From: Eledone cirrhosa
Lineage: Eukaryota
Length of the DNA: 64,000 nucleotides
Assembly (NCBI GenBank): GCA_964016885.1
Contig: OZ024740.1
Span: forward strand, 12,276,001-12,340,000
Reading direction: 5' to 3'
In this document: positions 47,721-64,000 of the stretch, in pieces
How positions within the stretch are numbered: position 1 is the stretch's first letter
Layout of the letters: every line of letters begins with the position of its first letter
Program-made: the position numbers and the translations under genes
The notes under the pieces: generated by a model
Database searches by the model: none
Told to the model about the DNA's origin: nothing
The model's input: only the letters and a program-made list of their open reading frames with translations

Positions 47721-48522
47721 AGATCACAGGTGTAGGTACACCGAATGCTAAAATAATCCATCCGATTGAAGTGACATATCAGACACACACACATACATTA
47801 TAAACACTTAGATTACATACATATACGTACACATATCTTTAGATATTAAACACCAAGTTAGATGTCAAGATTTATTTTTGTTGTTGCTTTCTCTCTTTCC
47901 GTTATACTAGAAGGAGAAGAAAGTGGCTGCGCTGAGAGAGGCGAAAGAGAGGGAGAGATAGATAGGTAGGTACAGAGAGAAAGAGAGAGCGAGCGATAGA
48001 GAGAAAGAGAGAGAGAGATAGGGTGGGGAAAGGGATTAATAGCTTGTCAGCAGCCTCTGAGACAAGCAGTCGTGCAAACAGGCATCAAATATAGAGAAAA
48101 CCGACGAAAGACAATAAAGGTTGTGTAAGAGAGGAGGTGTAATGATAGAGCTGTACAAGAGATACGGGAGCGGTAAAGTGACAGAATGATAGAGATAGAA
48201 AGAGGGAGAAAGAGAGAGAAAGAGGAGAAGAGAAAGAAATGTGTATAAGATATCAACATATACGTACATACATACATATATATACAAATAAATCATAAAA
48301 CGCAAGCGTCATGTAACAACCACTTTCTGTCAGGATTTGATATCTTCTTCCCCTTTTCTTTCTCTCAGTTGTGATAAGATGGTCAGTAGTTGGCAGCCTG
48401 ACCTTCAATCTATAGTTATCAATTTATGTATATTTACTAATATATCTATTTTTGGAGAAGAATAACAACAAATCACAAATTTCAATAGTAGTTCGATGTC
48501 AGACATATAGATATATAGATAT

Positions 48523-51500
48523 GTTTCTTTATTAGCCACAGGGGCACAAAGAAGGGGACAAATACAAAGGGGGAAGTTTACATACAATAAAAACGTGTAA
48601 AATATTATCACAAATGCATTTTAAAAATTAGTCGATTTTCCCCAATAGGGGGAGACATTACATATGGGTAACACATACCCCCGAAAAAAATGTGCAACCC
48701 TCATCTCCAGGAGTACGAAGAGTTTGTACCCCTTTCCTCTCCTCCTCTTTTTCCTCAACCTACAGGCTGATATAGAGAGAAGGCCCATTCACTCGGGCCA
48801 TTCTCGCCACTTTCACTCACCTTTCATAAAACTTGCTGGGGTACAGCACCTCTCTCTCCATCCTGATTCTTCTTCCAAAGTGGTATTTGAAAAAAAGAAT
48901 CAGTTGTTGGCCGGAGAGAAAGGTGTCTGACCTGAGCCCTTTCAACCTTGCCCACCATACAACCTCTTTCGCCATAGCTATCACACAAAGGAAAACCGCC
49001 TCTCCTTCGTTTTTCAAGGAGGGTGGCGGTTTGATCATGACAATGGACTCGGTGGTCAACCGGATTGGTCCCACCCGCGACAATAGTCGTTCTGCATAGC
49101 CCCACAGGTCGGTAACGCCCGGGCAGTGTATGAATGCGTGCGCGACGGTTTCTTCGTCTCGCACGCACCTCGGACAGATCTTTTTCGAAGGGTCCCTGCC
49201 CGGGCGCCCATGTCTGTAGAGCTTGTCTCGAACTGGTAGAGCTCCTCGGTAGCACTGCCAGGCCAGGGACTTTTGGAAGTTGTCCATCGGTCCCGGGCGG
49301 AAGGTCCTACCGAACAGACTGGCCAGTTCGTCTTCCTCTACGCCCTGAGTTTCACCGAGCGCGTCGTTGCACTTGCTGCGGATCAACCCTCTATAGAATG
49401 ACGAAGTGGTGTCTCCACTGACAGCCGGGTCCGCCTGCCAGATGGCTGTGAGCGCCTGAGCACATTCGATGTACCAGTCACCCATTTTCCTTGGTCTTTG
49501 CTTGACCCAGGACTGCAGCTCGGTCAGCGAGACGAGTCGTGGAAAGGCTCGCCACACGAACGGGCCCACACCAGCTGTTCGGTGAGGAATACGTAGAGAT
49601 TCCGCAACCTGAGCGCGTGTTTGCGCATCGTCAGCCACGGCAGCCATCGTCAGCTTCCAGTAGCCGGGTCCCTGTCTATGGGTTTTGTCAAGGTTGACTA
49701 AGCAGGTCACTAATTTGTGATCTGAATAGGCAACCACGAACATTTGTGGACAGCTTAACATGTCCCTATCCTTCTTTCTAACTAGAACGCTATCTAGGTA
49801 CGATCTAGATGTTCCGCTGCGATTAGTCCACGTCCACAGTGGCACAGTCGGAAAATCTAGTCGATATCTATCGGCTAGGTCTAATCGGCCGATTAACTTT
49901 TGAGGCTGTTACACCCCCTCTATCGGGACATGCTCCCACATAGTCCCAACGTGTATCTAGGATTCCATTCCAGTCCCCCACTAACAGCAGGGAGCGAGAC
50001 GTTTCCAGAAAAGTCTCTAGACGTTTGAAGACGTCTGGGCCGCGGTGTCCCGGATGGGGCATATGCGACCACCAGCCTGAAGGCTCCACCTTTACTACCG
50101 TTAACATCTAGGACCACCAGCCGACCCTCCGGGTCTAGATGTACCGTCTGTGTTACGAGGTCCAGGTGTTTCCGCAGCAAAACGGCAACCCCACCCCCAC
50201 CTCCCGGCTGACAGAGAGATGCGTAGATCACAAAGTCGTCGAAGATGGGGGCCAGTTGTCGCTCGCTGTGGATCATGGACTCTCAAATGGCTACTACATC
50301 CATACTGTGCGACCTGAGGTCGTTTAAGAGTTTGCCCTGTTTCCAGGGCATCCCCAGGCCGCGTACATTCACACATCCAACTCTTATATTGGCCATGCTG
50401 GTGCTGAAAAGTTAAAAGAAGAGGAAAAGAAATCACTCACCTCTTCGTCTCCTGGGGACCAGGCTGCACAATTTCCATGGAGGTGTTGGAGGGATTGTTT
50501 GGTGGGGTGGTGGTCTCTTGCGGGGTGGGGACGGAGATGTTGGTGGGGAGGGGTTGGGTGGGACTGTGTTTGCAGTTTGGTTTGTTTTTGTGTGTTGCTG
50601 TTGTTGTTGTGATGGTGGTGGTGGTTGTGTTGTTGTGTTGGGTGTCGGCAGTAGTGCCTTTTTTAATGCAGTTAATTGAGGACAGGAAGCTCTCAGGTGA
50701 CCACTGCTTAAACAGTGGTAACATGAAGGCCGCCTACCCTCAACAGAAATGTTTATGTAGGAATTTCCATCCAGAGGCACACGTTGTGGTATTCTAACTA
50801 TCTGTTCTGGTCTCATTTGGACCAGAACTTCTAAGCTTGTACCGTTGAATATGCCCCTGGAGGACTTTCCTACCGAAATTACTGTCTTCATCAAAATTGA
50901 TGAAACCAGCTATTATCCACCAGATGTTTACATTTGGTGTGATGGTTGTTATTTTTATTTTCTGGGTCCTTTTTCCCATGTATGTGGGGAAAAAGGTGTA
51001 GAGGGGGGACACAATTGGCGACACAGAATATTTCTGTGCCGTCAATTGGTCTTTCATTATTATTGATAAACTCCCGAAGAGTTTTCCCTTCTGTATGAAG
51101 CAATGTCCTTCATGGAGTTTCTTAGAACCAGCTCAATTTCATTTTGAGTTAATTGAGCTGGTTTTCTGGTGGTATTTGAGATTGTCCTACAAACTATGGT
51201 TTTCAGGACAGTGTCTCTACGCAATTCTTGGGGAAAAGTGATGCTAAAAACGCCCTTCTCCCCAAAAGTTATATATTGCTTGGCATCTCTTAGCAATTCT
51301 CCGGCATTAGAAATGTCAATCTGTGTATATAGTTCTGTATTTTGAACAGTTTGTGCAATGAATCCTTTTTTCTTTGTTTGTGGAGTTGTTCTTGTTGGTG
51401 TTGTTGTCATTATTGTTGCTGCTGTTGGTGTTGTTGTCATCATTGTTGCTGTTGTTGTTGTTGTCATTGTTGTCGTTGTTGTTGTTGTTGTTGTTGTTGT

Positions 51501-51549
51501 TGTCGTTGTTGTTGTTCTCAATTGCTTGATCTGTGGTTGCGGAATTCAT
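48523..51549 (-). mobile_element. Tx1/L1-clade element copy A: degenerate, RT domain deleted
   Basis: ORF1 remnants with CYHCLSSGHLRASC knuckle, APE remnants (GDWN, SYLD, SDH, GYWKL) and C-terminal CPRC..ETVAH..HC; collinear with copy C except for the ~1.8-kb RT deletion; multiple frameshifts. Confidence 0.9.
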
Positions 51550-62086: not shown

Positions 62087-62110
62087 GTTGGTGGTAAGGA
62101 GAAAAGGCAC

Positions 62111-63935
62111 TTACCTCTCTGCGTCCCGGGAAACGGGCCGCTCAATTTCCATGCTGGTTGGGGATGGGTTGTTGGGTGGGGTGGTGGTTTGTGGAAGTGA
62201 AGGGGCATCGGTGTGTTGTGGGGTTGGGGTGTTTGTGGTTGAGTGGGTGTCTGGGTGGGGTGGGGGGTGAAATTTTTTAGGATGACGCGGTTGATTGGTT
62301 TGGCGCAGGGGGGGGGGGGGGGGGGGGGCACGTCCTCCGTGGAATTAATTTCAGTGTTTTATACAAGTACATTAGGACTTTTATCATTTTTAAAGTTAGG
62401 CCCTTCAGTTTGGACCGAAGGGTTTGCTGAAATTGTTTTCCGTAATTCTTTGTTGTCTGTGTTCATGTATGTATATTGTAAGGTCTTTTTTTGTGTAGCA
62501 GTTAGTGTTGTGTGACAGGGAGGGGTGGTTTGTGTGTAGTTTGTGTTCTCTTGGGGAGGGTTAAAGTTAACGTGTCTGTGGTGCGTCTCCTCTTCTTTCT
62601 TTTTACTTGTTGGAAGGGATCTTTTTCGTCTTGCGACGAAAGGGGTTCGTCTTCCTTGTTGGGTGGGAGGGGTATGTTTTCTGGTAGTGTTTGCGGTGTG
62701 TGTGTTTTTGTATTTGTTTTGGGTGGGGAGGGATTGGGTGGGACAGTATTCTGTGTTATTTTTTCACGTGTTTGTTGTTGTTGTTGTGGTGGTGGTGGTG
62801 GTGGTGGTGGTGGTGGTTTTGTTGGTTTTTGTTGTTGTTGTGGTTGTTTTTGTTGTTGTTGTTGGGGTGGTGTTGGTGTTGGTAGCAGTGTTTTTTTCTG
62901 TGTGAGCTGGGGACAGGCAGCCCTCAGGTGACCTCTATTGCCACAGAGGTAACAGGAGGGACGCCTACCCTCCACAATAATGTTAAGGTGGGTACGGTCA
63001 TCCAGCATGACGCGCTCAGGGATTTGGGCGATACGTTCTGGCCTTATTTGGGTCAGAACTTCGATGCTCGTTCCACTGAACGCGTCGCCGGATGCCTTCC
63101 CTATTGAAATGAGGTTGTCCTCGTCTAAATTGAGGAAACCGGTTAGTAACCATCAGTAGTTCATGTTTGGGGTGATGGTGGTTATCCATATCCTCTGGTT
63201 TTTTTTACCTATGTAGGTGGGGAAGAAGGTGTGGTGTGTGGACCGAATTGGCGACACAGAGTATTTTTTCGTCGCCAATTCGTCTTTCATCAATATGGAT
63301 AAACTCCCATAGAGTTTATCCTTTTGTATGAAAGTGATGTCTCTCATCGCTTCTTTCAGTACTAACTGAATTTCAGCTTGAGATGGATGTGCTGGTTTTT
63401 TTGTTTTATTTAAAATTGTACGGAATACGACAGTTCGTAATTCCGTCTGTTTTTTTAGTTCTGGAGGTGAATTTATAGAAAACGAACCGTTTTCGCCAAA
63501 AGATACATATTTCTTGGCTTTTTCCAGCATTTCTTTTGCTTTTGAAATATCTTCCAGCACATACGTGACTGATAATTTAGCCGTTTGTGCAAAAGATATT
63601 TTGTTTTCGTTGTTGGTGTTTGTATTGTTTTGTTTCTCGTCGTTTGAGTTGTTTTCATCTTTGTTGTTGTTGTCTTTCTCGTTTGGTGTGTGGATACTTG
63701 TGACGTTTGTGTTGTTGTTGTTTTTGTTGTCTTTATTGTTGCTGTTGTTGTTGTTGTTGTTTTCAATTTCTTGTATAGTTGTGGCTACATCTAGTGGTCG
63801 GTCAACAGGTGAAGACAATTCTTCCTCTCTCTGACCTCTGCCTTTGGCATCTGCTGCTGTGACAGTGGCAGAGGGAAGCTGTGAGTATGACTGCCCCTTT
63901 CCTTCTTTGATTGATGGTGGAGATGCTTCAGCCAT
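62111..63935 (-). pseudogene. Tx1 ORF1 (CCHC zinc knuckle, Asn- and Pro/Gln/Thr-rich tracts), interrupted
   Basis: MAEASPPS... start at 63935; CYLCGNRGHLRAAC; premature TGA at 63153 where copy A has Trp; ends ...PTSMEIERPVSRDAER*. Confidence 0.85.
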
Positions 63936-64000
63936 TATAGATATAGACATAGATATAGATATAGATATAGACATAGACATAGATATAGACATAGATATAG
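63936..64000. repeat. (ATAGAY)n hexamer array, open at window end
   Basis: Seen directly. Confidence 0.95.

Follow-up and report, generated by a model that had tools for sequence, protein, structure and literature searches.

A Tx1-like LINE family, likely of octopods, with (TATC)n microsatellites as its probable main target

In teleosts, the Tx1-clade long interspersed nuclear elements (LINEs) Kibi and Koshi insert into microsatellites of the type (TC)n and (TTC)n, respectively (Kojima and Fujiwara 2004, as cited in PMC4494074 and PMC3812793). Together with (TTCC)n and (TTTC)n, these make up the microsatellite targets known for the Tx1 clade (PMC4494074, PMC3812793), and Waldo, Mino and Dong are further repeat-targeting LINEs, with (ACAY)n, (AC)n and (TAA)n as targets (PMC3812793). 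The mechanism by which microsatellite-seeking LINEs find their targets was called not well understood in a 2013 review (PMC3812793). Here we analysed a 64,000-nucleotide stretch of Eledone cirrhosa contig OZ024740.1 (positions 12,276,001 to 12,340,000; the window), which carries three LINE copies, A, B and C. These are probably three dead copies of one large Tx1-like lineage, likely an octopod one, which we call the octopod family. The 3' flank of its copies opens with TAT(C/A)T, with one orientation throughout and mostly within (TATC)n, probably, judging from the junctions, because the element's own endonuclease nicks there.

Like Kibi and Koshi, the octopod family is a LINE with an APE endonuclease and a reverse transcriptase (RT) that prefers one pyrimidine-rich microsatellite; as written for the element strand, the last two bases of the repeat unit are TC. 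Unlike them, it uses (TATC)n with the core TAT(C/A)T, tolerates (TA)n and an (ATAGAY)n hexamer, has a mollusc host and numbers thousands of copies. The likeness is one of target behaviour rather than established kinship, no sequence labelled Kibi or Koshi having been compared. With the Tx1 families of crocodilians that use (TTCC)n or (TTTC)n (PMC4494074) it shares the preference for a tetranucleotide microsatellite, but unit and host differ; from these families it is set apart by description, not by sequence. For Octopus vulgaris, 13 L1-Tx1 families are listed, and the term 'target site' does not occur in the accessible part of that text (PMC13282606). No (TATC)n-targeting LINE was reported in the literature searched, which did not extend to Repbase or Dfam, to the supplement of PMC4494074 or to most journals under subscription.

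Insertion sites across the genome

Within the 3.0 Gb genome, we defined a C-type end as the exact 23-nt end of copy C and counted A-type ends separately. C-type ends occurred 1,117 times, and in 1,055 cases the sequence continued with one A or T and TAT(C/A)T; W-TATCTATC (W being A or T) came next in 689 and W-TATAT in 146 of the 1,117. Among the 3,615 A-type ends, ATATCTATC was next in 2,299. The base after GAAAC was T in 32 of the 39 copies that are at least 98.8% like copy L154 and A in 52 of the 60 others, and because it tracks the subfamily it belongs to the element. The original prediction had ended the copies at GAAA(C/T) and without poly(A). Poly(A) is indeed absent from the 3' ends of A, B and C, but the element extends one base further than had been proposed.

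Of the first 100 C-type copies listed in chromosome order, 99 (all but C itself) were read at both ends. Their 3' flanks were TATC repeats in 66 cases, TA repeats in 17 and other sequence in 16, while the 5' flanks were TATC in 65, TA in 12, hexamer in one and other in 21; TATC thus exceeds, on either side, the 20% of flanks in one repeat type that serve as a rule in PMC4494074. The first bases of the 3' flank were TATCT in 76 and TATAT in 19 copies, the TAT register was exact in 95-98, and a flank in the opposite orientation, reading GATA, was found in none of the 99. Likewise, none of these flanks started with TCTCTCTC, that is, the (TC)n or (TTC)n target of Kibi and Koshi proper was not seen. 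Where repeats stood on both sides, their type agreed in 70 of 74 copies (shuffled mean 51.1; none of 100,000 shuffles reached 70), and TATC was present on the 5' side of 51 of the 85 truncated copies. For the A-type, inspection by eye revealed TATC upstream of 10 of 20 copies, several 5' junctions being uncertain.

As background we took 200 kb in 20 evenly spaced 10-kb stretches. Here TATCTATC started at 73 of 400,000 positions (versus 62 of 99 flanks) and TATATATA at 6,494 of 400,000 (1.6%, versus 12 of 99 flanks). Insertions per TATCTATC site are therefore roughly 400-fold those per TATATATA site, a figure from hand arithmetic on a small background that is to be read as an order of magnitude. 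The main target of the family is thus likely (TATC)n, or (GATA)n on the other strand, with the core TAT(C/A)T, and not the hexamer of the window. Random insertion, after which copies survive or co-amplify in microsatellites or repeats grow from the element ends, would profit from the abundance of microsatellites such as TATATATA and from the few copies that were duplicated together with their flanks. We nevertheless consider it very improbable: the register is exact to the base, the opposite orientation never occurs, the 5' breakpoints vary, and the pattern is already present in young copies (99%+ identical). Furthermore, flanks in TG, TC, TATG, TATT or TAA repeats were found in 0 of the 99 copies each.

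Target, tail and a proposed insertion mechanism

With 60 further copies selected for TATAT flanks, 156 usable copies were available (3 were dropped), and 18 of them had non-periodic target duplications. They open with the TAT of the junction, 9-32 bp (median 16.5) before the 5' junction; at unique sites they measure about 9-25 bp and carry no added tail bases. For one copy, L145, the empty allele was detected in a contig of run X1, where 1563-1787 is joined straight to 6400-6801 with 0 differences, leaving a single copy of the 12-13 bp duplication and no extra base. Together with the concordance of repeat types on both sides, the duplications without added bases and this empty allele indicate that the repeat is a pre-existing target and not a tail. 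The flanks of the 99 copies and the genome-wide junction counts hence support what the original prediction had proposed in general terms, a target-selective Tx1-like family of fixed polarity that inserts into a target instead of making a tail; polarity is not random, and TATC-type flanks dominate.

The specific target proposed did not hold up. The family had been thought specific for the (RTCTAT)n hexamer, or able to make a hexamer (or TATC) tail into which later copies insert, since all six window junctions lie at the hexamer or a degenerate form of it; elsewhere, too, copy L261 has a long hexamer flank with the polarity seen in the window and L196 a short one. However, only 4 places genome-wide, C included, showed a hexamer start (shorter-anchor pattern plus two hexamer units), versus 689 for TATCTATC, and 0 of the 99 sampled 3' flanks begin with two hexamer units. 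Against a tail made by each copy speak the unique sites and the L145 empty allele, neither of which has added bases, and the 16 of 99 flanks that lack TATC within their first 10 nt. Such a family is scarcely credible. The hexamer is rather an accepted but rare target, accepted because most units of the window arrays contain TATCT.

Following standard target-primed reverse transcription, the APE domain of the octopod family would nick, opposite the junction, the strand that reads GATA; reverse transcription would be primed from the released 3' end at the last base of the element, and a second nick 9-25 bp downstream would give rise to the target duplication. Sites would be graded, with (TATC)n best, (TA)n poor but very abundant, and the hexamer accepted. 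Because every insertion leaves the target on both sides, copies can stack head to tail, and a family-type 3' end lay within 150 nt upstream of 30 of the 99 copies. Three copies within one minisatellite array (L321-L323, G000:C2:408.67-408.70 Mb) all sit at the same TATATATATC phase.

Alternatively, the site might mainly be set by pairing of a read-through RNA, comprising the element end and downstream UAUC repeats, with a loosely nicked target, to which the endonuclease would add little. Such pairing has been proposed for R1Bm and SART1 (PMC7265360), and the lack of poly(A), the exact TAT register, the hand-calculated excess of TATC over TATA per site and a match of L145 over 6 nt across the junction would all agree with it. 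But the last base of the element need not match the target. Among 75 TATAT-site copies, 42 had a callable duplication and 33 had none (2 more, which had no terminal match, were dropped). Pairing of the last base had looked promising in 6 early cases but found no support in this set, where T stood before the duplication in 6 of 24 copies with T and 3 of 18 with A as their last base (p = 0.71). Moreover, 0 of the 99 copies combine TA upstream with TATC downstream, and hence TA sites received no RNA-borne TATC. Pairing at these sites would be limited to 3 nt (TAT), across which it may occur. As the principal determinant of the site, RNA pairing appears unlikely, and we favour nicking by the element's endonuclease.

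The proposed mechanism also concerns the 5' side. Among copies at sites without CTATC in the first 40 nt of the 3' flank (12 full-length, 71 truncated), CTATCT was present within 28 nt upstream of 9 of the 12 full-length but only 7 of the 71 truncated copies (p = 6e-6). Four copies (L137, L323, L331 and L333) have two to four TATC units inserted between duplicated target and element head. These sequences suggest that the full-length RNA likely starts within the repeat upstream or carries a head resembling it, and could in this way plant a new TATC tract; the TATC-like units at the head would then probably stem from transcription starting in the upstream repeat of the donor.

Several observations weigh against target choice by the endonuclease as set out here. 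Its specificity is deduced from junctions. The sole empty allele seen, that of L145, is from a non-microsatellite site, with none seen for any TATC site, and the duplication cannot be measured in most copies, A, B and C included, where the DNA is periodic. TAT(C/A)T is absent after 62 of the 1,117 ends, and 21 of the 99 5' flanks are non-repeat, some of them mis-called junctions or later rearrangements. TATCTATC occurred in 13 of the 20 background stretches, some beside family ends, and the background is only 200 kb. Not all sampled copies are independent (L150 and L151 have identical junctions; L185 and L186 are adjacent). Finally, the 5'-head test rests on 12 full-length copies, and part of the head may be fixed element sequence.

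The family, its relatives and its copies in the window

In copy C, the Pfam domains Exo_endo_phos and RVT_1 scored above and zf-RVT just below the cut-off, indicating an APE endonuclease and an RT of the L1 group. In the octopod family, open reading frame (ORF) 2 encodes 1,145 aa and ORF1 616 aa with the pattern C-x2-C-x4-H-x4-C (Pfam zf-CCHC, E 0.0034, under the curated cut-off; Atlas neighbours bear zf-CCHC). A separate ORF1 with a CCHC knuckle is a feature of the Tx1 clade. Both ORFs are open in the natural copies L154 and L204. In phmmer comparisons, ORF2 scored 447 bits with the U2-flanked element L270, 338 with Tetraodon BAC82605 and 323 with Polyodon 'YTX2', while the best match in the PDB was human L1 ORF2p (167 bits; R2, 70 bits). 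ORF2 thus appears closer to Tx1-type than to L1 proteins which, taken with the CCHC ORF1, fits a Tx1 assignment. The identification of BAC82605 as Kibi or Koshi was not confirmed.

Quick RT trees placed the octopod family with fish Tx1-type rows (Shimodaira-Hasegawa support 92), and in a careful tree (29 of 45 rows) the deep nodes were weak (34/62); all trees were built without a vertebrate L1 row and without a verified Kibi, Koshi, Mutsu or Dewa row, and the A-type row, a long branch in the first tree, was omitted from later ones. Firm, by comparison with these nodes, was a clade of the octopod rows and a sister clade, P0002-P0041, with ORF2 41-45% identical (99/99). Some members of the sister clade have hundreds of cluster members. 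A metagenome scan for its targets yielded distant elements only (50 loci). A likely octopod host is indicated by Argonauta hians, the source of the nearest named protein (67% identical). In five organisms, half or more of the sampled words of the 3' part of C were present (in one of them, X22, with only 1 aligned read), and therefore close relatives occur in several species; reads of four runs aligned to the 3' end revealed no flanks from other organisms. Five full-length copies (L125, L164, L189, L191 and L323) have a C-type 3' end and about 87% overall identity but another head, and are likely subfamily recombinants. Waldo, Mino, Dong, SART1 and R1Bm belong to other clades (R1 and R4) and have other targets.

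The best-scoring relative outside the sister clade is the Keno-like L270, the flank of which has TATCT near the junction. L270 and the likewise Keno-like L268 differ from the octopod family by an A-run end, a U2 small nuclear RNA (snRNA) gene as target and a separate branch (bootstrap 100/98). An octopod-type end before U2 sequence, searched as one exact pattern, gave 0 matches genome-wide; with this and the separate branch, insertion in U2 genes as in Keno was rejected. The two Tx1-type elements lie on metagenome contigs (L268:4757, L270:5851), and their U2 snRNA flank, which includes the TATCT core found in the octopod target, runs from model position 36, three bases before position 39, which is given for Utopia and Keno (PMC4640811).

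In the window, the three copies that had been placed at 48523-51549 (A), 56260-57644 (B) and 58385-63935 (C), all on the minus strand, were confirmed, and BLASTN with A and C as queries found no further copy outside them, in agreement with the original statement that the other tandem repeat (~35 kb) holds none. With the subfamily-linked last base at 48522, copy A spans 48522..51549; it is 5'-truncated, and its entire RT region is deleted (ORF2 residues about 259-851). As had been proposed, A represents a diverged subfamily (69-83% identical to C, 94-99% to its own kind). Its 3' flank is a short degenerate hexamer tract (48499..48521), the element strand of which has TATCT next to the junction. 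Copy B (56258..57644) is a 5'-truncated 1.39-kb 3' piece of the subfamily with last base A, and its flank begins TATCT at 56257.

Copy C (58384..63935) is near full length and has T as its last base, with a flank that begins TATAT at 58383. It starts at the ORF1 ATG and lacks the 217-bp 5' untranslated region (UTR); 5' truncation, previously recognized for B, hence applies to C as well. ORF1 (62111..63935, minus strand) has its CCHC knuckle near 62907-62957, an in-frame stop at 63153-63155 and frameshifts beyond, and ORF2 (58648..62086, minus strand), with APE endonuclease, RT and zf-RVT, has a frameshift near 60188 and an in-frame stop at 59719-59721. The 3' UTR (58385..58647, minus strand) ends in AATAAAAGAAAC. 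Both C (63935) and A (51549) start at an ATG, that of C being the ORF1 start, probably by chance or through short microhomology with the repeat.

At least two independent insertions had been postulated. Independence stands, and the number is likely three, since B and C show 23 differences over 1,385 sites, and the nearest relative of B in the sample of 99 copies is not that of C. That B is a local duplicate of C is ruled out by their different subfamilies.

The (ATAGAY)n arrays comprise about 786 units between A and B (51548..56259, with 509 TATCT words on the element strand), a 0.74-kb tandem repeat between B and C (57645..58383) and the 5' flank of C (63936..64000), which runs about 60 bp past the window edge into non-repeat DNA. 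The six junctions do lie in or beside the hexamer, as originally stated, except that the 5' end of A is about 12 bp of imperfect sequence (51550-51561) away from perfect units. TATCT occurs 588 times in the two main hexamer arrays, always on the element strand, versus 8 times in the four other large arrays of the window (about 34 kb), which explains the shared polarity and the copy-free neighbouring arrays. The rate in the hexamer arrays, three insertions per approximately 600 sites, is comparable in order of magnitude to that of TATC, about 3 per 1,000 sites (hand arithmetic for two counted subfamilies, in a window chosen for its cluster).

The four other arrays are a 23-mer (1-8691), a TA-rich repeat (20725-25830), a 27-mer (26031-42368) and a 30-mer (42864-46629), with a 200-N gap at 25831-26030. 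The 30-mer array encodes Thr-rich repeats in long open frames, and 47175-47603 on the plus strand could be coding. At 16895-20119 (minus strand), a 1,075-aa frame with endonuclease, RT and a PHD-finger match represents another, apparently unbroken LINE outside the A/B/C family, with a C-terminus that we presume to be RTE-like.

Significance for octopod genomes

Microsatellite targeting was already known from fish and crocodilians, and the octopod case extends this rule and breaks none. Likely new are the (TATC)n target and the mollusc host, which add to the few LINEs known to seek microsatellites. The two subfamilies number at least 4,700 copies, young copies have open ORFs and site use is graded, which makes the family a good natural system for mapping the specificity of an APE endonuclease. 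In practical terms, octopod microsatellite markers of the GATA type may be flanked by repeated sequence.

The original prediction had envisaged a self-feeding array of element and satellite. This does not hold for a hexamer 3' tail, but a weaker form survives, by way of the 5' head of full-length copies and the target duplication. It is possible, though we would not put it at even chances, that the octopod LINE lineage and (GATA)n feed each other: TATCT would be cut, 9-25 bp duplicated with each insertion and TATC units brought by the 5' head, such that the element creates or lengthens its own landing pads. If true, retrotransposition would directly give rise to GATA repeats in the genomes of octopods, through a 5'-head route as opposed to the poly(A)-tail route of L1 and Alu.

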